The notes under the pieces were generated by a model, which saw only the letters and a program-made list of their open reading frames with translations, searched no databases and had not been told where the DNA came from. Shown piece after piece: positions 12,038 through 31,283 of a stretch of DNA of 64,000 nt. Position 1 is the stretch's first letter. Each line of letters starts with the position of its first letter. Source of the DNA: a virus (taxonomy: Duplodnaviria > Caudoviricetes); the IMG/VR virus record IMGVR_UViG_3300010163_003659, positions 31,901 to 95,900 of that record; one strand, given 5' to 3'. A program made the position numbers and the translations under genes.

Positions 12038-12180
12038 CCTAGGTGGATTTTTCCACCTAGGCAGGAGGTAAACTAGGTGGATTTTTCCACCTACCCAGAA
12101 GAAAATGGGAAAAAGGTAGGTGGAAATTTCCACCCAGTGTCTGAATATTTTGATACTTACCTAGGTGGAAATTTCCACCA
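12038..12180. repeat. Four palindromic TAGGTGGAWWTTTCCACC units (iteron/operator-like)
   Basis: Copies at 12038 (perfect 10-bp arms), 12073, 12117, 12161. Confidence 0.85.
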
Positions 12181-12324
12181 CTTTATATAAAGTTTACCAT
12201 ATACTTATAAATTTATTGGAAATTAGAAATGGCTGATATGGGCATGCGGATATTGCTTTCAAACAGGAATAGGGATTTGTTATAGAAAGGAAATGAAATT
12301 GGATATCTGTCCGTTGTTTGCTGT

Positions 12325-12404
12325 GACATTTGTACGACGTTTGTTATGACATTTGTCCGGACATTTGTACATCATTTGTTGTGACATTTGTCCAGACAAA
12401 TGTC
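12325..12404. repeat. GACATTTGT tandem repeats, 11-12 bp period, last copy inverted
   Basis: Copies at 12325, 12336, 12348, 12360, 12371, 12383; inverted at 12395. Confidence 0.8.
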
Positions 12405-15684: not shown

Positions 15685-16320
15685 ATGATGGGAGCATTTG
15701 GTAAAGATTTGTTAACCCAACACGAGATGATAACCTTGGCATCAATTGTACAGGTTGGAGATGCTACTTACTTTGATTTGCTAGAGGCAGAAAGACCGAT
15801 GTTTGCGCATCCGTATTTCACTGATTTGAAGGGAAGAGTACGGACGAAACTTGTACAGATGCAGTGTGAGATGGAGCACTATGACGGCAAGTTCCCATTT
15901 GCGTTTTCTGAACGGGAATTTTGCTATGGGCATAAAGTGCCAGAATTAAGGAATAAGTATATGATAATCCATTTTGCACAAAGTAATTCGCCGACTTCCC
16001 TTCCAAGCAAGGCTGATTACAAATGTGAATTGACATTTAACAATGATTCGTTGTACCGTCAAATGAGATTTGACTTTTTAGGAGAACAAAAATATGTTAA
16101 AGAGCCATATTATGGCATTTTGGTTTTCGGAGGCCGGCAGGGAAAGACATTTTGCCGTTTACAGTTTCCGGAGCCGGGATACAGGGCTATTGCAGATTAC
16201 ATTGATATACCTATGATGAGTTTGGTGCCTGAAAAGGAGGAAACAAAGAAATTTGAAAGGAAAAAGGCGATACTGAGGGAGGAATTTCTAGCTCATAATG
16301 TCAGGGAAGAAGTATTATGA
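15685..16320 (+). CDS. Hypothetical protein, candidate toxin partner of downstream HTH-peptidase
   Basis: ATGA overlap with next gene; no motif recognised. Confidence 0.6.
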   Translation: MMGAFGKDLLTQHEMITLASIVQVGDATYFDLLEAERPMFAHPYFTDLKGRVRTKLVQMQCEMEHYDGKFPFAFSEREFCYGHKVPELRNKYMIIHFAQSNSPTSLPSKADYKCELTFNNDSLYRQMRFDFLGEQKYVKEPYYGILVFGGRQGKTFCRLQFPEPGYRAIADYIDIPMMSLVPEKEETKKFERKKAILREEFLAHNVREEVL

Positions 16321-17474
16321 AAAATAGTGTCATTCCAAGCCGCATAACAGAGGCACGTGAGGCTTGTGCATTGTCAATGGGGGATTTGGCAGAAAGAATA
16401 GGGGTTACGAGGCAGTCTGTTTCAAAATATGAAAGAGGAATTATGAGCCCTTCACTTGATGTCTTACAGTCAATTTCAGTTTTATTGCATTTCCCGGTTG
16501 ATTTTTTTTATAAAGAAGAGCTGGGAATAAGCACAGGAACAAGCCCGTTATTTTTTCGTTCTAAATCCAATATTTCCAAAAAAGTAAAGATGGCATGTAA
16601 GCACCAGGTAAAATGGGTTTGTGAGATAAGAAAACAGTTGGAAAGATATGTTAAATTTGTTGACCAGAACACTCTTGTAGTTGATGTGGATTATGAGAAT
16701 CTGCAGGATAGTGACATTGAAGAAATAGCTCTGTCGGTAAGACATGAGTGGGAACTTGGTGATGCTCCTATAGATGATTTGATAGGTATTTTAGAGAATC
16801 AGGGGATAATTGTAGCCCAATTTTCGGGAAATGATTTCTGCTCCTTTAATGGAATTGATGCGTATTCCTCATGGTATGGCGGAATACCTTATATAATTTA
16901 CAATTCAATGCAGAAAAGTGCTGTCCGTACAAGGTTTAGTATTCTTCATGAGTTGGGGCATTTAATTTTTCACAGTTCTGTTTCAGAAGAAGATGCAGTA
17001 AAAAAAGAAGTTGTTGATTTTGCAGATATGCAGGCAGACAGATTTGCAGCAGCTTTTCTTTTGCCGTCCACCTCTTTCCCGAAAGATGTAAGGGGAACCT
17101 CTTTGGCTTATTTAGAGATAATCAAAAAGAAATGGGGAGCTGCAATGTCTACCATAATCAGGCGTTGCGAGACATTAGACCTTTTGACGGATAATCAAAT
17201 CGGGTATTTGAAAAGGCAAATGACAACAAACAAGTATTGGCATAAGGAGCCCCTGGATGATGTGCTGCAGATTGAGCCGCCGGAGATGTTACGTGATGCG
17301 GTTTATCTGTTGATAGATAACAATATAATCACAAAACATACTTTTTTGGACTTATGTGCTTTGCCACCAAAGGATTTACAGTGCATATGCTCATTGCCGG
17401 ATGGCTTTTTTGGCAGTCCCCTGCAGAAGCAAAAACCTGTTTTAAGAGTGGTGAGGGAGGGGGAAGATTTTTGA
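16317..17474 (+). CDS. XRE HTH + ImmA/IrrE (peptidase M78) protein
   Basis: N-terminal XRE HTH; RTRFSILHELGH; ADRFAAAFLLP. Confidence 0.9.
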   Translation: MKNSVIPSRITEAREACALSMGDLAERIGVTRQSVSKYERGIMSPSLDVLQSISVLLHFPVDFFYKEELGISTGTSPLFFRSKSNISKKVKMACKHQVKWVCEIRKQLERYVKFVDQNTLVVDVDYENLQDSDIEEIALSVRHEWELGDAPIDDLIGILENQGIIVAQFSGNDFCSFNGIDAYSSWYGGIPYIIYNSMQKSAVRTRFSILHELGHLIFHSSVSEEDAVKKEVVDFADMQADRFAAAFLLPSTSFPKDVRGTSLAYLEIIKKKWGAAMSTIIRRCETLDLLTDNQIGYLKRQMTTNKYWHKEPLDDVLQIEPPEMLRDAVYLLIDNNIITKHTFLDLCALPPKDLQCICSLPDGFFGSPLQKQKPVLRVVREGEDF

Positions 17475-18479
17475 GATGTAATTTGTTTGGAAGTTGCAAT
17501 AAAGGCAAACGGCATAGAAATTAAAGTTATAGGGAATAATATATTGATTAATAGAGGCAGCACTTTCAATGTGAAGCCGGGCACTGCAAGTGTCTGGCTT
17601 TTTTGCGTACAGGGGGGGTGTCTGCAAGGGAAAGCCTACAGGGCAGACAGCGTTTTTTGTGTGTGAGGAAAGCGAACGTTCGCTTAATTACAAAACAATG
17701 GCACATGGCGGTAAGGATACTGTAAACCTGCTGTTTATGGTATCCCGCCCATATTGCTGTGCCTTTTTAAAAAGCGAACGTTCGGTTTGCCCCATACAGA
17801 AAAACGGGCGGGGATTTACCGCAGCGTTGCATTTTCCGCAGAAGGAAAACGAATCACAGGTGGAGCGGTTTGCCAGTGCAAGAAGGTGGCGCAGGTGGAA
17901 CGGCCGAAAGCTCCCCACGGAAGCAAAAACAAATGATTGCAACGTTGCAAAAGCCTGAGGGGAGTCTGTGGCACACGCAGAGGCTTCATTTTGCCGCTCT
18001 AATGGCCGGAATGATAAGAATTGCCCTTCAGCATTGCAAAGGGGCTGTATGGGCAAAATAGGCGGTGCGTGGGGTGGGGCTGCTGCCGTGCAATATTGTG
18101 GCAGGGGATAGGAGGGGCAACAGGAAGAATTTCATGGGGACAGGATGCACAGCGTCAAGGTGTGGGCGGGATAGGATACCATCTGCCCCATCATAGGCGA
18201 GGGGAGTGTATTGAAAGGGTTTGGGATAGCCTGGGGATGCCAGCGCTGCAGTGAAGGGATCCTGCTGCCGTCAGAGACATAACCAGAGACAGAGACATAG
18301 GCATAACCGTATGGCCTTCAGATTGCCCGAAATTCGGTTGAAATTATTTTAGACAATAATTTTATCGTTGAGAGAATAAAATGAGCATGGCGGCCAAAAT
18401 AGAAGGCGAACAGAACTATATCAAACTTGAAGCAGTTAGGACAACAGGTTCTGCTTATAGGAACATAGGAATTTTTTAG

Positions 18480-18508
18480 TTGCGTATGGGACTAACTAAT
18501 ACTATAAT
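18480..18508 (+). promoter_or_regulatory. Promoter TTGCGT-N17-TATAAT for TIR-NLR operon
   Basis: Exact 17-bp spacing; same hexamers precede second module. Confidence 0.7.
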
Positions 18509-18566
18509 AGTGGTAGATAACAAATGACAAGGGAGGACAAAAGATGGAAATACGGAGGTGGAATTT

Positions 18567-19220
18567 ATGGGACAAAGAGTTAAAAACGAACTAAATAATG
18601 TCTCGATTGGAGGCAGCTATATTGGCAGGAGTAGTATAGTTAATAATTATTATATTCATCAGGCAGAAACAGGAACAGAAGGGAGCAGGGATGACAAAAC
18701 AATATTCATTTCCTATAACTGGCATGATGGGAAGATTGCAGACAGGATTGACAGGCATCTGTCAGGGCTTCCAAGTGTAACTGTAAAAAGGGATGTGCGT
18801 GACATTGGCCCATGGAAAAGCATCCGAGAGTTTATGGAAGGCATCCGGCAGCAGGATTATGCGGTTTTCATTGTCAGCGATTCTTATCTGAAATCAAAAA
18901 ATTGTATGTTTGAGGTTACAGAAATGATGAAAGAACAGGAGTATGCGGACAGAATTTTCCCGGCCGTTGTGGAAACCGACATATATGATCCGTTGGTACG
19001 TGCCAGATACATAAGTTACTGGCAGCAGGAATGTGATAAGCTGGAGGCTGCTGTAAAGGGGCTGGATCCGGCCAATGCAGTTGAGCTGGCAGCAGATTTG
19101 AAATGTTATAAAAATATTGCATCTTCTGTAGGGGAGTTTTTAAGCATAGTTGCAGACAGGAACAATCCGGATATCCATGAGGTAGAGGTACAGATAGAGA
19201 AAGCATTACTGAAGAACTGA
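18567..19220 (+). CDS. TIR-domain protein with N-terminal N/G-rich motif
   Basis: IFISYNWHD, SDSYLKSKNCMFE (catalytic-type Glu), RIFPAV; GGAGGTG RBS before ATG 18567. Confidence 0.88.
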   Translation: MGQRVKNELNNVSIGGSYIGRSSIVNNYYIHQAETGTEGSRDDKTIFISYNWHDGKIADRIDRHLSGLPSVTVKRDVRDIGPWKSIREFMEGIRQQDYAVFIVSDSYLKSKNCMFEVTEMMKEQEYADRIFPAVVETDIYDPLVRARYISYWQQECDKLEAAVKGLDPANAVELAADLKCYKNIASSVGEFLSIVADRNNPDIHEVEVQIEKALLKN

Positions 19221-19239
19221 CTGATAAGGGGGAATTACT

Positions 19240-21621
19240 ATGGATCAGAGAATAAATAATCACTTTAAGGGTGGTAACATAGAAGGCGATTATGTAGGGG
19301 GGAATCAGACAAAAAACTACTATATATCCATGTTTCAAGATTTAGAGCGAGAGTTTGTTGTTACACATAATGCCGATATCAAGCCAGTGTCCTATTTTAC
19401 TGGACGAGAAACAGAGCTGCAGGAGTTGCGCCAGCGGCTAGAGGAAGGGCGCAAGTCTGTTCTAGTAAGCGGGATGGGTGGCATTGGAAAAACACATATC
19501 TGCCGGAAGCTGTTTGAGGAATACACCAAAAAACATGCTGATGGTGAGGATATACCTTTCTGCCATATTGGATATGTTGAGTATAATGGGGATATGGGCA
19601 GCAGTCTGCAAACCTGTTTAAAATTTAAGGAGCAGGACGATTCGGGGCAGAATCAAGAAGCGGCATGGAGAGAACTGGAATATCTAGCGGCAGGTGGGAA
19701 ACTTCTGCTGTTTGTGGATAATGTAGACAAGCCTGTAAACGCTGATCCAGGATTGCAGAGGCTAAAGGGGATTCCCGGAGCGGTTATTTTGACATCTCGG
19801 CAGGCTTCTTTTAGTGATGAATTTGAACCATACCCGATAGGTTTCCTTGATATGGAGCAGTGTAAAGAGATTTATGAGAAAATCCGGTTTAAGGGCAGTA
19901 AGAGAAAAGTCAGACTGGAGGAAGAACAGGATTTGAAATATGTCATAGAGGATTTGGCTGGGAGGCATACCATTACAGTTGAACTTCTGGCGCATTTGGC
20001 ACGTACAAAAACATGGACAGTGAAAAGGCTTAGAGAAGAGTTGGGGCAAAAAGGGTTCTGTCTGGCATTTCATAAGAACGGGAAACTTGTCAATATCCAA
20101 AAATCTTATGAAGTGCTTTATGATTTGTCCAAACTGACAGAAGCAGAGCAAAACATTCTGGAGGCTTTTTCAATATTTCCGTATATTTCTTTGGAGGCAG
20201 AGATATGTAATCAATGGCTGCTTGCGGATGCTGGAGTAAGTGAAGAAGATGATATCTTAATGGGATTATATCAGAAAGGTTGGCTGCAGTTTGATATAGA
20301 GCAGGGAAGCTATGCTATGCATCCTGTGTTTGCGAAATTTATTTATGAAAGATGTAAGCCAAAATTGGAAGGGCATCGTGGATTGATAGAGGGATGTCAG
20401 AAGTGTTTGGAAATACCAGAAAGCGGTTCTGTTATGGAGTGCCAGCATTTTATTCCTTTTGCAGAGAATATTTTGAAAAAAATCAGCATGGAAAATGAAA
20501 TAGAACATGTTCAGTTTATGGACATATTGGCATATTCACTACAACATACAAGGGAGTATGCAAAAGCAGAAGTATTATACGAAAAGATTTTACAGATTAG
20601 AAAGAAATTGTATGGACAAAAACATCCAGATACAGCTACCGGTTATAATAATTTAGCAGCTGCATATGCTGAACAGGAAAAGGATAAAGAAGCGAAAAAA
20701 TTGTATAAAAAAGCTTTGTTGATAAGAGAGAAAGTGTTAGGGGAGGAGCATCCAGATACAGCTGACAGTTATAATAATTTGGCAGGGGTTTATTCCAAGC
20801 AGGGGAAGTGCTGGAAAGCAGAGGGACTACATAAAAGAGCCTTGTTGATAAGAGAGAAAGTGTTAGGGGAGGAGCATCCAGATACAGCTGACAGTTATAA
20901 TAATTTGGCAGTGATATATGCTGAACAAGAAAAGTACAGGAAAGCAGAAAGGTTCTGTAAAAGAGCCTTGTTGATAAGAGAGAAAGTGTTAGGGGGGGAG
21001 CATCTAGAGACAGCTAATAGTTATAATAATTTGGCAAGGATATATGCTGGTCAAGAGAAATATAAGGAAGCAGAAGAACTGCATAAAAAAGCCTTGTCGG
21101 TAAGAGAGAGGGTGTTGGGAGAGGATTATCCAGATATAGCTTATAGTTATGATAGTCTTGCAGAGATAAATGAGATTCGAGAGAAGTATAAAGAAGCAGA
21201 AGAATTATATAGAAAAAGCCTACAAATAAGAATGAAAGTGCTAGGGGAAGAATATCCAGATACAGTCATGAGTTATCTCAACTTGGCAAGTGTGTTGAGT
21301 GAACAAGGAAAGTATGGGAAAGCAGAAGAGTTGTATAAAAAGGGTATACAGATAGGTGAAAGCGTTATGGGAAAAGAACATTCATATACAGCTATAGGTT
21401 ATAATAATTTGGCAGGAGTATATATAGAACAAGGAAAGATTGACAGGGCAATAATATATTATCATAAGGCTTATCAAGTTTTTGTGAACAAATTTGGAAG
21501 AGATGATCCAGATACACAAGTTGTATATGGAAATTTGGAAGCGATATACAGAGCATATAATCCAGAAGGCAATTTTGAACAGTGGCTGGAAGAAAAGATG
21601 AAAGAAGCAGATTTGGATTAA
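19240..21621 (+). CDS. STAND/NB-ARC ATPase + ~8 TPR repeats (NLR-like protein 1)
   Basis: FTGRETEL, GMGGIGKT, LLFVDN, ILTSR, MHP; 42-aa TPRs (LGEEHPDTA.SYNNLA). Confidence 0.92.
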   Translation: MDQRINNHFKGGNIEGDYVGGNQTKNYYISMFQDLEREFVVTHNADIKPVSYFTGRETELQELRQRLEEGRKSVLVSGMGGIGKTHICRKLFEEYTKKHADGEDIPFCHIGYVEYNGDMGSSLQTCLKFKEQDDSGQNQEAAWRELEYLAAGGKLLLFVDNVDKPVNADPGLQRLKGIPGAVILTSRQASFSDEFEPYPIGFLDMEQCKEIYEKIRFKGSKRKVRLEEEQDLKYVIEDLAGRHTITVELLAHLARTKTWTVKRLREELGQKGFCLAFHKNGKLVNIQKSYEVLYDLSKLTEAEQNILEAFSIFPYISLEAEICNQWLLADAGVSEEDDILMGLYQKGWLQFDIEQGSYAMHPVFAKFIYERCKPKLEGHRGLIEGCQKCLEIPESGSVMECQHFIPFAENILKKISMENEIEHVQFMDILAYSLQHTREYAKAEVLYEKILQIRKKLYGQKHPDTATGYNNLAAAYAEQEKDKEAKKLYKKALLIREKVLGEEHPDTADSYNNLAGVYSKQGKCWKAEGLHKRALLIREKVLGEEHPDTADSYNNLAVIYAEQEKYRKAERFCKRALLIREKVLGGEHLETANSYNNLARIYAGQEKYKEAEELHKKALSVRERVLGEDYPDIAYSYDSLAEINEIREKYKEAEELYRKSLQIRMKVLGEEYPDTVMSYLNLASVLSEQGKYGKAEELYKKGIQIGESVMGKEHSYTAIGYNNLAGVYIEQGKIDRAIIYYHKAYQVFVNKFGRDDPDTQVVYGNLEAIYRAYNPEGNFEQWLEEKMKEADLD
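20716..21037 (+). repeat. 126-bp near-identical TPR-coding tandem repeats
   Basis: Units at 20716, 20842, 20968; 70 bp identical between first two. Confidence 0.85.
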
Positions 21622-21825
21622 GTCATAGGCACGATATTGGCTAATGGTAATGGATGCACTGATTCTGCTGCCGTACAGCAGTAGATATTGTTATGTTGAA
21701 ATAGTGGAATTTATGCAGGACCTTAGTGATGAGGAACTGGAGACATTGAACAGGCAAGTAAATCAGGCGATGGAGCATGTTCGCATCGTTTACAAATGAA
21801 ACAAAATGTGGAAGGGGAATGTACC

Positions 21826-22422
21826 ATGAAGAGAGAAACAACTCCGATCAGAGTGACGGATAAGATTATGGAATTATGCAGCGGGATAGTACCGGATGCG
21901 AAACCGGAATATGTTTCGGTTAAAGTGCAGGAATGGAGCAGACCAATGGAATGTTTTCCCAATGTGGAGCGTATGGTTCAAGAGCAGGGCGGGCAGCAGA
22001 TTAATGGTTGGGCAATCTGGCAATGGGCGAATATCCTTGTAGAGGCCGAGGCTCATTCTGTGTGGCAAAGTCCGAAAGGGGAACTGATGGATATTACCCC
22101 TCATGACAATGGGGAAAGGGAAATCCTATTCCTGCATGATGCTGGCATGGTGTATTCCGGGCAGAGCATTGGAAATGTAAGGCTTGCCATCACCGGATCA
22201 CCGCTGGCTGCTGAAATGGTCGATCTCGGCGATAAGATAGATGCGGTCATGTGCAGTTACAAGCCAGGAACGGAAATTCCACTTTGGGAGCTACGGCGCC
22301 GACTGCTGCCACTAAAGGAGCAGAGGGAGGCAATCGTGGGGATGTTGAACCAGAAAGCCAGCAGGAATGCCCCTTGCCCATGCCAGTCTGGATTAAAGTA
22401 CAAGAAATGCTGTGGGAGGTAA
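21826..22422 (+). CDS. SEC-C motif protein
   Basis: C-terminal RNAPCPCQSGLKYKKCCG; N-terminal CFPNV..H..DITP. Confidence 0.8.
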   Translation: MKRETTPIRVTDKIMELCSGIVPDAKPEYVSVKVQEWSRPMECFPNVERMVQEQGGQQINGWAIWQWANILVEAEAHSVWQSPKGELMDITPHDNGEREILFLHDAGMVYSGQSIGNVRLAITGSPLAAEMVDLGDKIDAVMCSYKPGTEIPLWELRRRLLPLKEQREAIVGMLNQKASRNAPCPCQSGLKYKKCCGR

Positions 22423-22425
22423 GTT

Positions 22426-23007
22426 ATGATATTTGATGTTATTTTCAGCATCCTTTCAACAGTTATTAGTTCAACTTCTCTTATATTTATTAAAGAGGTT
22501 TTTGACAGAAAGCAGAACCATCAGGAAAATAAAGAAATCCAAGAAGATGCTGAGAAGATTATTGGAGATACATTTAAAAGTGATGATGTAATTGACTTGA
22601 TGCTAAAAAATGTTCGTGAATTGAGAGAGTATTACATAATCAGCAAAAGACAGGCAACAAATGCGTTTTCTGCTTCACTGATAGTCTGCTTTTTGGGTTT
22701 TATTGTTTATATTGCGGGTATCGCTGTATTTGTTATTTCTGGAGAAAATGCATTACTGTTAACTACCATATCAGGAACAATAGTGGAAGTAATTTCCGGA
22801 TTATTTTTCTGGCTTTATAGACATGCAATTAAGCAGTTAAATATTTATCATCAGAGATTAGGTACAACAGAGAAGTATCTGACAGCAATTCGTTTAGTGG
22901 ATAAAATGGGACAGGATAAGCATGATGATATGTACAAGCATATTATTGAATGTGTTTTAATAGATAATCGTATGCAATCAAATGAGGAAAATGAAAAAGA
23001 GCAGTAA
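22426..23007 (+). CDS. Membrane protein, TRADD-N-associated 2TM-like
   Basis: YY..KRQA..F..S followed by two TM helices ending ISGLFFWLY. Confidence 0.6.
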   Translation: MIFDVIFSILSTVISSTSLIFIKEVFDRKQNHQENKEIQEDAEKIIGDTFKSDDVIDLMLKNVRELREYYIISKRQATNAFSASLIVCFLGFIVYIAGIAVFVISGENALLLTTISGTIVEVISGLFFWLYRHAIKQLNIYHQRLGTTEKYLTAIRLVDKMGQDKHDDMYKHIIECVLIDNRMQSNEENEKEQ

Positions 23008-23174
23008 GAAGGAATATGTTCTCTAATCTGCAGAGTGTTTCAAATCCGTCCGAAAAGGCTTTTGGCGATTAATTTAACTGTTGAGAGGGGAAAAGAGGAA
23101 TATGGAGCAAATTAGAGGGTATAGGGAGCGTGTTGTACATTAGACAGCAGGCTCTTTCTTTATGAGATTTAAAG

Positions 23175-23203
23175 TTGCGTAAGCATTAAACCAATATTAT
23201 AAT
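23175..23203 (+). promoter_or_regulatory. Promoter TTGCGT-N17-TATAAT for second effector-NLR operon
   Basis: Same hexamers and spacing as 18480-18508. Confidence 0.7.
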
Positions 23204-23218
23204 AAAGACAGATAAAGG

Positions 23219-23461
23219 ATGATAGGGGGAATGGTGGAAATGATGGAAGTGTTTAATGTTATTAGTGGAGTATGTTCCATTGTTGGACTGTCTGTTTCTC
23301 TTTTTACGGCCAGCAAGGTGATTAAAATAACGCAGAACATTAACAGTGGCAATGTAGATGACCATTCAAAGGTTGTTAATGGAGGCAAAGGCAATACATA
23401 TAATGGGCCATATGCAGGGAGGGATTATACGAATGAGACGAGAAGTGGACAACAGAAATAA
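23219..23461 (+). CDS. Single-TM micro-protein with C-terminal N/G-rich GPYAGRD motif (start may be 23240/23243)
   Basis: Hydrophobic VFNVISGVCSIVGLSVSLF; tail shares motif with NLR2 N-terminus. Confidence 0.75.
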   Translation: MIGGMVEMMEVFNVISGVCSIVGLSVSLFTASKVIKITQNINSGNVDDHSKVVNGGKGNTYNGPYAGRDYTNETRSGQQK

Positions 23462-25820
23462 AGACAGCAATTTCTATGGGCCATATGCTGGCAGGGATAT
23501 GAATGTTACCAATATCATAATGCTTCAAGATTCAGAGCGTGAATTTGTCGTTACGCACAATGCTGATATTAAGCCAGTGTCATATTTCACAGGCAGGGAA
23601 ACGGAACTGGAAGAACTGCGTCAGAGGATAGATGAGGGACGCAAGTCGGTTCTGGTGAGTGGCATGGGCGGTATTGGTAAGACTCATATCTGCAGGAAGT
23701 TGTTTGAAGAGTACACCAATAAACATGCGAAAGGTGAAAATATACCTTTCTGCCATATTGGATATATTGAGTACAATGGGGACATGGGCAGCAGTTTACA
23801 GAACTGTCTAAAATTTAAGGAACAGGATAACCCAGAACAGAACCAGGCGGCAGCGTGGAAAGAATTAGAATATTTGGCAGCAGACGGGAAACTGTTGCTG
23901 TTTGTTGACAATGTGAATGTGTCGGTGAGGGAGGATGCAGGGCTGGAAAGGCTGAAACAGATTCCTGGAGCAGTGGTGCTGACTTCCAGAAGGACATCTT
24001 TCGGCAAGGAGTTTGAACCGTACAGGATTGGTTTTTTGAGTACAGAGCAATGCATAATGGTTTATGAGAAAATCCGGTATGAGAATAGCAGCAAGAAAGT
24101 GCCGGAAGAAGAGATACTGGATTTAGAATATATCATAGAGAATATGGCAGCAGGACATACCATTACCATTGAATTTTTTGCACATTTAGCCGAAACAAAG
24201 CAATGGAGTATAAAAAGGCTGCGTGAGGAACTGGACAGCAAAGGGTTTCGGTTGGAATACAAGGATGAAGAGGACAAGTTGATAAATATTCAGGAAGAAT
24301 ATGAAAAGTTGTATGATTTGTCTGTTCTGACAGAGGCGGAAGGGAACATACTGGAGGCGTTTTCTGTATTTCCGTATATTCCTTTATCTGCGGAAATTTG
24401 TAATCAATGGTTGCTTTTTGATGCGGGGGCAAGTGAAGATGATGATATTCTGATGGGACTGTATCAAAAAGGGTGGTTGCAGTTTGATGTGGAGCAGGAG
24501 AGCTATGCTATGCATCCAGTATTTGCAAAGTTTATTGATGAGAGGAAGAAACCAAAATTTGAAGAGCATCGTGGATTGATAGAGGTATGTCAAAAGTGTT
24601 TGGAAATACCAGAAAACGGCTCTGCTTTGGATTGTCAAAGATATATTCCGTTTGCAGAAAATATTATAAAAAAGATAGATATGAAATCAAGTATAAAGGA
24701 AGCAAGATTTATAACAGAACTTGCTTATTTGTTGCAATATATAGCAGAGCATGAAAAAGCGGAGGAATTGTATGAAAAAAGTTTGAGAATACAGGAAAGA
24801 GTGCTGGGGGAAGAACATTCAGATACCGTTGCGATCTATAATAATCTGGCATATGTATATAATTGCCAAGGAGAGTACAAAAGATCGAAAGAGCTATATG
24901 AAAAGAGTCTGTGGATAAGGGAAAAAGTGTTTGGAGAGAAACATCCAGCTATGGCATACGATTATAATAATTTGGCAATGATGTATGAGAGGCAAGGGAG
25001 ATATAGGGAGTCAGAGGACTCGGTTGTTGATAATATGGAGAATGAAGGAAGTGCAAGAAAAAGAGAAAGACGAAGAAAAGGAAATATTTTTGGAAATGTA
25101 CTATCAATAATTTCTTTGGTAATTAGTTTATTATCGTTATTGATATCTTACAGGACTATCCAATTAGAAGAAGTGGAATATCAACCGCATTTTATTTGTA
25201 CTACAAAAAATAATGAGGAATATAAAAAACCTGAAAGTTTCTATTTTAAGATTCACACGATTAAAAATATTGGAGTGCCGATATCTAACGTGGAATTTGA
25301 TATACAAGAAGTTTTATGTTTTCAAAGGGCTTTAACCAGTGAAAGTATGGATGTGTTGATTTGGAAAAAAACAGATATTCTAAACGAGGATAAAGATATT
25401 AAATACGATTTAGATAAACAAGAAATTGTAATTGAAGGAATCCGTTTAGAATATATAGAATATATGCTTAATAGCTATTTTAACAGTGATAGCAATATTT
25501 TTTTTTATGAGCCATATCGCATTAAAGTATATAATGTGACTTGTAAAAGAATCTTAAATATACAGTATACAAATAGGGAGGGCGTAAACTGTAGGGAATG
25601 TTATGAGTTAAAAGAAAATCATATTTCTCTTTTAGACAAAATTGTGAAACGTGAAGATTATAACGAAATAGTTGATTTTATACATGGAAGTAAGTATGAA
25701 TTAGGGGAGGTGTATCAAGATAATATGGAACAAGCACAAGATATGATAACTAATATGTTGGGAATTAATATAGAAAGAGAGAAAGAGGAGTTAGCAAAAC
25801 AATATAACAAGAAAGATTAA
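23433..25820 (+). CDS. STAND/NB-ARC + short TPR array fused to TM-anchored C-terminal domain (NLR-like protein 2)
   Basis: Paralogue of NLR1 from QDxEREFVVTHNADIKPVSYFTGRETEL onward; RBS GGGAGG before ATG 23433. Confidence 0.88.
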   Translation: MRREVDNRNKDSNFYGPYAGRDMNVTNIIMLQDSEREFVVTHNADIKPVSYFTGRETELEELRQRIDEGRKSVLVSGMGGIGKTHICRKLFEEYTNKHAKGENIPFCHIGYIEYNGDMGSSLQNCLKFKEQDNPEQNQAAAWKELEYLAADGKLLLFVDNVNVSVREDAGLERLKQIPGAVVLTSRRTSFGKEFEPYRIGFLSTEQCIMVYEKIRYENSSKKVPEEEILDLEYIIENMAAGHTITIEFFAHLAETKQWSIKRLREELDSKGFRLEYKDEEDKLINIQEEYEKLYDLSVLTEAEGNILEAFSVFPYIPLSAEICNQWLLFDAGASEDDDILMGLYQKGWLQFDVEQESYAMHPVFAKFIDERKKPKFEEHRGLIEVCQKCLEIPENGSALDCQRYIPFAENIIKKIDMKSSIKEARFITELAYLLQYIAEHEKAEELYEKSLRIQERVLGEEHSDTVAIYNNLAYVYNCQGEYKRSKELYEKSLWIREKVFGEKHPAMAYDYNNLAMMYERQGRYRESEDSVVDNMENEGSARKRERRRKGNIFGNVLSIISLVISLLSLLISYRTIQLEEVEYQPHFICTTKNNEEYKKPESFYFKIHTIKNIGVPISNVEFDIQEVLCFQRALTSESMDVLIWKKTDILNEDKDIKYDLDKQEIVIEGIRLEYIEYMLNSYFNSDSNIFFYEPYRIKVYNVTCKRILNIQYTNREGVNCRECYELKENHISLLDKIVKREDYNEIVDFIHGSKYELGEVYQDNMEQAQDMITNMLGINIEREKEELAKQYNKKD

Positions 25821-25927: not shown

Positions 25928-26491
25928 TTAAATATTCAGCAAATCGGCAATTTCCGAGAAGTTGATAAGCAGATCATCATAGATATTGACCTTGATTGTG
26001 GAATCAAAGGAGTACTGGATGTTTAGCATATTTTCCTCGAAGTAGTTGACGGTTACTGTTTTGCGGCGCGGATCTACAATCCAATACTCACGCACTCCAT
26101 AATTTTTGTAGTAGTAGAGTTTGCGGACATAATCATCTGCTGGATTACTGGGAGAAATAATTTCAATGATAAAATCTGGAGCACCGTTGCACCGTTTTCC
26201 GTCTAACTTGTCTTTATCACATACAATCATGAGGTCAGGTTGGACAATGGTAAGTGGAGTATCATTCAATTTTACATCAAATGGGGCATGAAATACCCGG
26301 CATGGCCCATTTTTGCTTTTGAGATAGGTGTTGAGCATAGTCGAAAGTTCCATGGAGATTGTCTGGTGATCCTGGGACGGACTGGCCATATCAAAGACAA
26401 TACCATCAAATACTTCTACCCTTTTTTCCTCTGGAAGAGCTTCATACTGTTCTAGGGTGATTGTTTCCGGCTGTGGTTGTAATGCTGGCAT
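25928..26491 (-). CDS. Uma2 family endonuclease
   Basis: MASPS..HQ, VQPDLMIVCD, GAPDFIIEIISPS, GVREYWIVDP. Confidence 0.92.
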   Translation of the reverse strand: MPALQPQPETITLEQYEALPEEKRVEVFDGIVFDMASPSQDHQTISMELSTMLNTYLKSKNGPCRVFHAPFDVKLNDTPLTIVQPDLMIVCDKDKLDGKRCNGAPDFIIEIISPSNPADDYVRKLYYYKNYGVREYWIVDPRRKTVTVNYFEENMLNIQYSFDSTIKVNIYDDLLINFSEIADLLNI

Positions 26492-29780: not shown

Positions 29781-30101
29781 GAAACTGACAGGGCTGTGAC
29801 GCACGTAGAGGCCTTATTTTGGACCGAAAAGAGAAAAGGTGATAATAATACCGTTAATGAAATAAAAAGCCCTGTAGGGGAAATTAGAGGGCATTGGAAG
29901 AAAAGGTGATTATGGGGAAAGCAGAAAACAGAGGCTCCCGCCATGCTGCAACATGGGAGAGCCCATAAGAGCTAAGGCACATGATAAGAAAGACCAAAGC
30001 ATTTGTATTATAACTGAATTTAGAGACGTTCACAATAAAAACTGAATATGGATTGAGGCGGTTCTGCTGCCTCTTTGCGTAACAGAAAGGAGCTGGGGGA
30101 C

Positions 30102-31283
30102 ATGGCAGAGAACAAAAAGAAACAGTTGCCGCCGGGGATTTCACTGCGTAAGGATGGCAGGTACCAGGCGAGATATACATTTAACGGCAAACGCTATTCA
30201 ATTTATGGCAAGGACTTGAAGGAAGTGCAGAAAAAGCTTCGGGATGCCAAGTATGAAATGGATCATGGCATATTCGCCAAGCCGGATAAGGTAACGGTAG
30301 ATTCATGGTTTAAGGTATGGAAAGAGGAATATGCAGCCAACAGCATGAGGGAGAACACCCTCGCCCATGTAGACAGCATGTATAGATACCACATAAAGCC
30401 GGAGATAGGGAACATGAAAATACAGGATGTACGAACCGAACATATCCAGATGCTGCTTAACAAGATGAAAAAGCAGGAATATTCTTCGGATTTTATGAAA
30501 AGAGTCAGAAATGTTGTGAGCCAGATGTTTAAGCAGGCATACAGGAATGACATGATTATGCGGAATCCAGTAGAGAATGCAGTTACCCCATCCGGAAAGA
30601 CAAAAAAGGAGCACAGGGTACTGACGGAACAGGAGCAGGCGTTGTTCCTGGAATATGCAAAGGAAACTGAATATGAGCTGGTTTTCGTGCTCGGATTTTC
30701 TACAGGAATGAGGATAGGCGAGATACAGGCCCTGCAGTGGCAGAACATAGATTTCAAAAATCTGGAAATCAGCATAGAGGGTACACTTGTCAAGGTGGAT
30801 GGAAAGGAGTATGTAAAAGGGCCTACAAAGACAAAGAGCAGCATCCGCACCGTTCCACTGCTCCCTGATGTAGCAAAACAGCTAAAGAAGTACAAAAAAG
30901 AACAGTCGGAATACCGCATGATGTTAGGGGCAGAGTGGCAGCAGGTAAGGGGGCTGGAGGATTTGCTGTTCTGTACTGCAGTGGGCAGGCCGCTTTCAAG
31001 GAGCGTTTTGTACAATGCTATTGACCGGATTATTGAGCTGATTAATCATGATGAGAGGATAAGGGCAAAAGCAGAGGGACGGAAAGCGGCAGTGTTTGAG
31101 CATTTTTCAAGCCACACCATGAGACACACCTTTGCGACAAGGGCTTTAGAGAATGGTATTCCTCCAAAGGTTGTCCAGGAACTTCTGGGGCACAGCACTA
31201 TAAAGACTACAATGGATATATATACTCATGTATTGCCTAAGACAAAGAATGAGGAGATACAGAAAATTGCCAGTCTGTTCTGA
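30102..31283 (+). CDS. int: Tyrosine integrase of the embedded element
   Basis: [22 protein letters not shown]...TMDIYTH; N-terminal arm-binding domain. Confidence 0.95.

Follow-up and report, generated by a model that had tools for sequence, protein, structure and literature searches.

The DNA analysed here, referred to as the window, is a stretch of 64 kb that comprises bases 31901-95900 of a 95.9-kb provirus record from IMG/VR. As cargo of an element of about 20 kb inserted in a prophage gene, it carries two gene modules of the same design. Each of these consists of a small effector gene and, directly downstream, a gene for a sensor of the NLR type, that is, a protein with an NB-ARC domain and tetratricopeptide repeats (TPR). 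In both modules, the effector and the sensor have in common a motif of about 27 residues, rich in asparagine and glycine, which very likely serves to couple the two proteins and which probably does so by an amyloid-like mechanism.

Two modules with matching motifs

The effector of the first module (the coordinates of all features are collected in Table 1) is a protein of 217 residues, the start of which was placed by us at the ATG behind a GGAGGTGG ribosome site. Residues 1-40 contain the motif and a hydrophilic linker, and they are followed by a TIR core (approximately residues 44-140) and by a helical C-terminal part. The AlphaFold2 model has a predicted local distance difference test (pLDDT) score below 35 for residues 1-40 and a confident TIR core behind them. 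Foldseek gave no match in the PDB at E<=0.001 for this effector, though the TIR domains of L6, BtpA, PdTIR, RUN1 and AbTir top the list with weak E-values. Furthermore, a glutamate in a C-M-F-E stretch (E116) is invariant among 40 TIR homologues. Judged by its sequence, effector 1 has a TIR fold with a conserved catalytic glutamate and is presumably an NADase. The sensor of this module, NLR1, has the Walker A sequence GMGGIGKT and a strong TPR match (Pfam TPR_12, E=1e-91). Its TPR units are encoded by 126-nt repeats that are 63-74% identical (20563-21444). Sensors with identical N-termini found elsewhere (proteins P0059-P0118) are 702, 744, 786 or 870 residues long, so that the TPR copy number appears to vary in steps of 42 residues; such variation is typical of fast-evolving NLR sensors.

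The effector of the second module is a peptide of only 72 residues, in which an acidic second residue precedes a hydrophobic helix (residues 3-33 in the AlphaFold2 model) and the motif lies in a disordered tail. Inspection for a Bell- or HeLo-like executioner revealed the acidic second position and the one helix, and no further domain. Members of this peptide family are present in public gene calls, one variant on as many as 598 contigs. The longest open reading frame (ORF) of the corresponding sensor, NLR2, starts at 23358; the ATG at 23433 was adopted because this start fits all homologues. No slippery site for a programmed frameshift from the peptide into NLR2 was seen by eye in the overlap of the two genes. 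NLR2 keeps only two TPRs (about 24822-25019). The 265 residues that follow (25020-25820) consist of an in-frame basic stretch, a transmembrane (TM) helix and an AT-rich domain (about 33% GC), and neither a Pfam family nor a relative in any related locus was found for them. This C-terminal part is probably the result of a deletion fusion with an unrelated gene. When it was searched against the ESM Atlas, only unnamed clusters (at 0.91) were returned, which is a lead at most.

From a Q-D-x-E-R-E-F junction onward, NLR1 and NLR2 are 67% identical over 529 residues. Their first 30 or so residues differ, and each of these N-termini matches the gene directly upstream: local BLOSUM62 scores are 57 for the TIR effector with NLR1 and 53 for the peptide with NLR2, as compared with 36 and 34 for the crosswise pairs. 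In the sensors the motif is located at residues 4-30 and the NB-ARC domain begins at about residue 57 (Pfam NB-ARC, E=1.5e-9 and 3e-10), with a Walker A sequence that is invariant in 16 aligned homologues. The four motifs of the window align without gaps over a G-x-Y-x-G core. An alignment of all copies of the motif spans 27 positions and needs hardly any gaps; one asparagine in it is invariant and one glycine nearly so, and therefore the GGN type of module 1 and the GRD type of module 2 are considered as sub-types of one family. When the window was translated in all six frames, a profile made from 57 copies matched exactly the four ORFs of the two modules, with 29-44 bits as compared with 4.9 bits for the next one; as the four copies of the window were part of the training set, this search shows specificity and not discovery.

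Both modules start from a promoter-like site TTGCGT-N17-TATAAT. In the whole window this exact string is found only at 18480 and 23175, with 0 occurrences expected. A sigma-70 scan did not list the module 1 site, because its -35 hexamer fits TTGACA at only three of six positions. On comparison, the two promoter/leader regions are to be regarded as homologous copies and not as independent matches. The exact string was sought in the other loci and is absent from them; peptide-type loci elsewhere have a related, non-identical promoter, and both an AGATAA box and the ribosome-binding site are conserved among them. In module 1, the leader (18509-18566) is homologous to these peptide-type leaders. 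It still contains an ATG-GAA start at 18545, a relic that is not in frame with the TIR gene, and it has been placed ahead of the ribosome site that belongs to the TIR gene itself. This relic suggests that a TIR cassette took the place of a peptide cassette behind the promoter of module 1, which would be a first sign of cassette exchange.

Several of these features had been announced in the original prediction for this locus. It had described paralogous sensors whose different N-termini match the gene upstream, and the identity after the junction, together with cognate scores above the crosswise ones, bears this out; the G-x-Y core common to all four motifs and the shared promoter string were likewise found as described. 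The motifs had also been called private to each pair. They are not unrelated families, however, but two sub-types of one.

Motif pairing and exchange in related loci

In total, 55 related loci were fetched from genomes, viral contigs and metagenomes. The useful part of this set came from alignment-based scans of viral and metagenome contigs; a single-protein scan of genome contigs gave only four loci, because its patterns were too specific. A search for the NLR family yielded 520 proteins at E<=1e-3 among 8000 candidates scored. The best 120 of these 520 relatives, NLR1 itself being excluded, are 68-76% identical to NLR1 and possess an N-terminal motif of about 30 residues that falls into a few sub-types.

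The best match to the sensor N-terminus lies in the gene directly upstream in 44 of the 46 loci with a recognizable NLR start, and the two loci without such a match have less than 400 nt of upstream DNA. These loci represent 29 distinct pairs, all of which are class-matched (7 GGN and 22 GRD). In each of the 7 GGN pairs, the upstream gene encodes a protein of about 217 residues with the motif at its own N-terminus. The presence of a Pfam TIR_2 domain was confirmed for the window copy, for three other GGN pairs, for a related locus (L070) and for both TIR-type upstream genes of the sensors looked up separately (see below). In all 22 GRD pairs, the upstream gene encodes a peptide of 61-72 residues with an acidic second residue, a hydrophobic helix of about 22 residues, a lysine-rich stretch and a C-terminal motif. 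The genes are collinear, with a gap of 19 nt in the first pair of the window and an overlap of 29 nt in the second; GRD pairs overlap the sensor start by 23-29 nt. Among the 29 distinct pairs, cognate partners have a mean score of 59-60, non-cognate partners of the same class 53-55 and partners across classes 29-31. The observed total score was reached by none of 10,000 permutations, over all pairs as well as within the peptide class, although this is not to be taken as a strict probability since related sequences are not independent. Co-conservation of the motifs between neighbouring genes in homologous loci had been set beforehand as a test of the prediction, and the counts of 44 out of 46 loci and 29 out of 29 distinct pairs speak in its favour.

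Natural swaps of the motif are the strongest evidence here, at the level of sequence comparison, that it acts as a coupling device. In a quick maximum-likelihood tree (400 NB-ARC residues, 80 rows), the motif class needs 16 changes, as compared with 16.5 for shuffled labels, and well-supported branches force at least four changes. Four sensors were chosen from two mixed clades for a look-up of the gene upstream, and the class of the upstream effector was predicted correctly for all four. The sensors P0004 (GGN) and P0011 (GRD) have NB-ARC bodies that are 92% identical and N-termini that are only 34% identical; a TIR_2 gene is found upstream of the former and a gene for a 70-residue peptide upstream of the latter. 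The swap is repeated between P0102 and P0032, with 95% identity of the bodies and 27% of the N-termini. Same-class sensors from different clades have bodies that are 66-68% identical and motifs that are 55-72% identical. As near-identical bodies carry different, effector-matched motifs, the motif travels with the effector gene and not with the sensor body, and it is the sole feature that matches the effector in every case.

Only two of 401 sampled Lachnospiraceae species genomes contain close homologues, but metagenomes and phage contigs contain many of them. This sporadic occurrence in genomes fits with carriage by mobile elements. A search of the same 401 genomes with the motif profile retrieved only the two genomes with close NLR homologues and one chance match to an IspD-like protein, and no new class of receptor or effector. 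Fused TIR-NLR forms were encountered only as single-member, deletion-like chimeras, and no recurrent fused architecture was found with the query used. In genome G320, a decayed module (L091:1492-2900) comprises a TIR effector cut at 143 residues beside an NLR fragment that has lost the N-terminal half of the NB-ARC domain. Two distant Lachnospiraceae NLRs that are 32% identical (L071:979-1500 and L073:1480-2124, minus strand) have other Asn/Gly/Gln-rich N-terminal motifs, which are common to the N-termini of the helical proteins of 126 and 151 residues encoded upstream of them. No Pfam family was found for these two effectors, nor for the fused N-terminal domains of other NLRs. Judging by these sequences, an N-terminus-to-N-terminus topology may be common in this Lachnospiraceae group.

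The carrier element and its other genes

Named close relatives of the proteins in the window come from Lachnospiraceae metagenome-assembled genomes (MAGs), Roseburia sp., Hungatella sp., Candidatus Merdisoma, Otoolea muris, a Eubacterium sp. MAG and a Bacilli MAG. The prophage gene for the large terminase, terL, is present in two halves with about 20.3 kb between them, and this intervening DNA (about 11.1-31.45 kb) corresponds to the element. Besides a tyrosine integrase, it encodes a DnaD-like initiator, a repressor, an Ant-like protein and a sigma-factor-like protein, and TGGTGTCA-type repeats are located at both junctions of the element with terL. None of the ORFs of the element that were tested matched a virion gene. 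In related loci the same order is kept, with the effector/NLR cargo being followed by genes for Uma2, initiator, helix-turn-helix (HTH) and HIRAN proteins. From its genes, it is plausible that this is a satellite-like, integrative element inside a prophage, which as a satellite would depend on a helper phage. Thus, the location on a satellite that had been predicted gains from the integrase, the initiator, the regulators, the split terL and the lack of a virion match among the ORFs tested, and falls short of proof. An 18-nt palindrome-like unit is repeated four times in a non-coding stretch of the element, along with five iteron-like GACATTTGT units spaced 11-12 nt apart (12040-12179 and 12302-12394); this is a possible origin or regulatory array.

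All genes around the effector/NLR modules are on the plus strand, in the order RosmerTA-like pair, a gap of about 1 kb, module 1, SEC-C gene, two-TM gene and module 2. The RosmerTA-like neighbour marks the region as a defence island, and in another locus (L036) the module is likewise preceded by a homologue of RmrA. The DNA from RmrA to module 1 (17475-18480) contains neither a convincing ORF nor an Rfam match at the gathering threshold, and an Rfam search of the whole window returned nothing. The two genes between the modules also have copies elsewhere: the SEC-C gene is present in full length upstream of a peptide gene in 13 other loci, with fragments in a few more, and the CyanoTRADDas_TM gene has 80-96% identical copies in 11 other loci with peptide-type modules. 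They may represent a separate two-gene system or accessory parts. The Uma2 gene occupies the same position in six further loci (L009, L013, L014, L037, L094 and L097).

Table 1. Positions in the window of the two modules, their motifs and the surrounding features
Feature	Position	Strand	Remarks
terL, N-terminal part	10638-11120		matches positions 15-130 of PHROG 5902
RosmerTA-like pair, RmrT-like and RmrA (HTH plus M78 peptidase)	15685-17474	+	PADLOC RmrA E=1e-104, RmrT E=1e-6
Promoter-like site of module 1	18480-18508	+	TTGCGT-N17-TATAAT
Effector 1, TIR_2 protein, 217 aa	18567-19220	+	Pfam TIR_2 E=6e-17
Motif, N-terminus of TIR effector	18576-18656	+	residues 4-30 of 217
NLR1, 793 aa	19240-21621	+	N-terminal motif, NB-ARC, AAA_16, 7-8 TPR; starts 19 nt past TIR stop codon
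Motif on NLR1	19249-19329	+	GGN sub-type
Terminator-like hairpin after NLR1	21664-21685	+	
SEC-C-motif protein	21796-22422	+	Pfam SEC-C; without the effector/sensor motif
Two-TM protein, CyanoTRADDas_TM family	22426-23007	+	Pfam E=1.9e-17; without the effector/sensor motif
Promoter-like site of module 2	23175-23203	+	TTGCGT-N17-TATAAT
Effector 2, peptide, 72 aa	23243-23461	+	longest ORF starts at 23219; no Pfam match
Motif, C-terminus of peptide	23369-23449	+	GRD sub-type; residues 43-69 of 72
NLR2	23433-25820	+	motif, NB-ARC, two TPRs; overlaps peptide gene by 29 nt
Motif on NLR2	23442-23522	+	GRD sub-type
Uma2-family protein (putative endonuclease)	25928-26491	minus	directly downstream of NLR cargo
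Tyrosine integrase of the element	30075-31283		
terL, C-terminal part	31453-32559		matches positions 128-357 of PHROG 5902

Possible mechanism, alternatives and relation to known systems

The best explanation of the locus is that each module is an operon, in which the gene for an executioner is followed by that for an NB-ARC/TPR sensor (bacterial NLR), and that both are cargo of the element of about 20 kb in terL. On the comparative evidence, we are highly confident that effector and sensor are coupled through the motif. By analogy with characterized systems, it is moderately probable that the whole statement applies, namely that these are two abortive-infection-type modules that signal via an amyloid-templating motif resembling the bacterial amyloid signalling sequences (BASS). 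According to this proposal, the TPR array would recognize a phage-derived cue as trigger, and the NB-ARC domain would then oligomerize. The oligomer would bring together the N-terminal motifs, which are probably disordered in the monomer, and the cluster could take a cross-beta (amyloid-like) fold and template the same motif on the free effector. In module 1, templating would concentrate the TIR domains into active NADases, with depletion of NAD+; in module 2, it would assemble the one-helix peptide into a membrane-damaging, possibly pore-forming oligomer. Both routes may lead to cell death and abortive infection, and the GGN and GRD sub-types would keep the two modules apart. It could further be imagined, as a tentative idea with somewhat less than an even chance, that these loci belong to an undescribed and very abundant family of amyloid-signalling NLRs, which is an exchangeable cargo of satellite-like elements in phages of Lachnospiraceae and which combines an N-to-N topology for TIR, a minimal one-helix executioner and orthogonal sub-types that are shuffled together with the effector.

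The composition of the motif offers a first indication of amyloid character. Set against the remaining parts of these proteins, the motif contains more Asn (3.5x), Gly (2x), Val (1.6x) and Ile (1.25x) and less Leu (0.2x) and Pro (0.23x). BASS are rich in Q, N, G, V and I and poor in K, P and L (Dyrka et al. 2020, bioRxiv 10.1101/2020.01.06.895854), and BASS1 forms ordered amyloid and prions. Seven published BASS sequences (PMC8086366, supplementary data) were compared pairwise with the motif and scored against composition-preserving shuffles. The GGN motif resembles two BASS1 sequences of the 'GGNQ' type (z=7.2 and 4.7) and BASS6 (z=4.6), and the GRD motif resembles two BASS1 sequences of the 'AGRD' type (z=4.1-4.5) and BASS2 (z=2.5). 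Because these are seven sequences compared in pairs only, the motif is termed BASS-like without assignment to a family. The prediction of a complex of two copies of NLR2 residues 1-45 with two copies of peptide residues 31-72 gave no answer (a score close to zero and a low mark) and is evidence neither way.

Several observations weigh against the amyloid-signalling proposal, either in general or for this particular copy. Gln (0.41x) is depleted and Lys (0.93x) hardly so, whereas published BASS are Gln-enriched and Lys-depleted. The likeness is spread over BASS1, BASS2 and BASS6 without any single family being matched, and a fifth BASS1 sequence has no similarity to either motif type (z=0.5). 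The amyloid step itself is argued by analogy. The effector-side motif of published pairs is C-terminal, as it is in the peptide, whereas that of the TIR effector is N-terminal. In peptide genes, the codons for G-R-D double as the ribosome site of the sensor (in the window, those at 23412-23420 read GGGAGGGAT and likely have this second role for NLR2), so that part of the G-R-D conservation could be at the DNA level. Finally, in this window NLR2 is down to two TPRs and joined to unrelated sequence, and the most conserved turn of the TIR motif reads G-R-S, as against GGN or GGD in 108 of 120 homologues. As a consequence, one or both modules may be impaired here, and module 2, having lost most TPRs of its sensor to a foreign fusion, may sense nothing in this copy.

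The main rival explanation does without a polymer. The motif might be a non-amyloid homotypic adaptor, a beta-hairpin or strand tag by which one effector docks on each activated sensor subunit in a finite, resistosome-like oligomer, with no self-propagating polymer being formed. The comparative evidence shows motif-specific coupling and is silent on the polymer state, and the abundance of Lys in the GRD type and the N-terminal position of the TIR motif, unlike that in described amyloid pairs, would be in agreement with such an adaptor. However, AlphaFold2 monomers leave the motif disordered in the TIR effector as well as in the peptide, and a tag of 27 residues without a globular partner surface would be an unusual device for finite docking. 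An adaptor of this kind is therefore considered rather unlikely. It is even harder to envisage that the sensor acts as an antidote, its motif holding the effector motif inactive in the resting state and sensing serving to free the effector. Co-transcription of motif-matched effector and sensor would suit such an antitoxin-like arrangement, and Rosmer-type toxin-antitoxin logic adjoins the modules. Nevertheless, for effectors that work by clustering (TIR) or by oligomerizing (the one-helix peptide), activation is a simpler scheme than release, and activation is how the characterized relatives HET-S/NWD2 and Bab/Agp act. There are also degenerate loci in which fragments of an effector persist although no sensor is intact, and this would come at a cost were the sensor an antidote; such a restraint appears quite improbable.

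A mere by-product of the DNA, be it gene conversion, a recombination scar or an overlap of translation signals without any signalling role for the protein, is already disfavoured and seems highly improbable: the GRD copies of the window (family D15) are indeed 21/23 nt identical, and the G-R-D codons on the effector side form the ribosome-binding site of the sensor, but in the comparison across loci the codons for identical residues of cognate motifs are the same in only 44% of cases, so that recent gene conversion does not explain the likeness, TIR-type pairs do not overlap the sensor start, the sensor-side copy has no ribosome-site role, and about 118 of 120 TIR homologues keep the motif at their N-terminus while the linker of 12-15 residues behind it varies freely.

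Amyloid-templated signalling, which is the proposal favoured here, invites comparison with several known systems. The effector/NLR gene pairs BASS1-10 (Dyrka et al. 2020; J Mol Biol 432:6005) likewise consist of neighbouring genes in the same orientation that overlap or lie a few bases apart, and have an Asn/Gly-rich motif of about 25 residues on the NB-ARC/TPR N-terminus and on the effector. TIR2 is listed among the BASS-linked effectors (Dyrka et al. 2020), and there is the resemblance in sequence to BASS1, BASS2 and BASS6. Unlike in those pairs, the hosts are unicellular gut Lachnospiraceae with phage-borne elements, the TIR motif is N-terminal, the second effector is a one-helix peptide of 61-72 residues instead of a Bell domain, and Gln is not enriched. 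NLR architectures have been found to be rare or absent in Firmicutes (Dyrka et al. 2020), and nothing specific on amyloid signalling in Firmicutes or Lachnospiraceae was found among the papers searched. The nearest tested case is Bab/Agp (BASS11) of E. coli ECOR25, which provides anti-phage abortive infection by infection-triggered amyloid conversion (Ibarlosa et al. 2024, bioRxiv 10.1101/2024.11.07.622273). It also comprises two genes and is located in a defence island of a prophage. Its sensor carries the motif at the N-terminus, and its executioner is small and membrane-targeting, with an acidic residue close to the N-terminus, a hydrophobic helix and the motif at the C-terminus. In contrast to the modules described here, its sensor is a TPR-GreA/B-PIN protein instead of an NB-ARC NLR, its motif family is different, and its executioner has a helical 'Babybell' domain of about 85 residues instead of one helix.

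The proposed mechanism is also reminiscent of the fungal HET-S/NWD2 system, in which an oligomerized NLR seeds a prion-like fold, and this fold in turn switches on the product of a neighbouring gene, a membrane-targeting or enzymatic effector. That system is fungal, and its HRAM motif is present as two pseudo-repeats on a HeLo effector, whereas a single copy is found here. In Avs/AVAST and bNACHT systems, a STAND ATPase with a repeat sensor reportedly triggers abortive infection, and they are said to lie in defence islands on mobile elements and to have the effector covalently fused to the sensor. Here, in contrast, the effector is a separate protein that is linked to the sensor only by the motif, and the PADLOC models for Avs/AVAST and bNACHT gave no match in this locus.

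In the light of these systems, the novelty first ascribed to the motif family and to the combination of effectors was overstated: TIR2 was already linked to BASS, Bab/Agp has been demonstrated, and the motif has similarity to BASS1, BASS2 and BASS6. Amyloid signalling by matching tags is already known from fungi, Streptomyces and one anti-phage system of E. coli. New features are the phage-borne setting in Lachnospiraceae, the N-terminal motif on a TIR effector and the minimal peptide effector.

Prion-like or amyloid templating is established as an immune signal in fungi and mammals, and there is one tested bacterial case. If the proposal is true, such templating would also have its place in common gut anaerobes and in elements that parasitize their phages, and the supposed link with multicellular bacteria would be removed. 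The two compact, orthogonal pairs and their natural swap variants constitute material on the specificity of seeding, and the TIR pair raises the question of whether assembly on an amyloid scaffold is enough to activate an NADase. In practical terms, short ORFs that overlap the start of an NLR gene merit annotation as effectors. The peptide of 72 residues would be the smallest amyloid-gated membrane executioner and, should the tentative view of a distinct NLR family also hold, the smallest HET-S-like device, and the sub-types would then amount to a signalling code of the plug-and-play kind that phage-borne elements have evolved.

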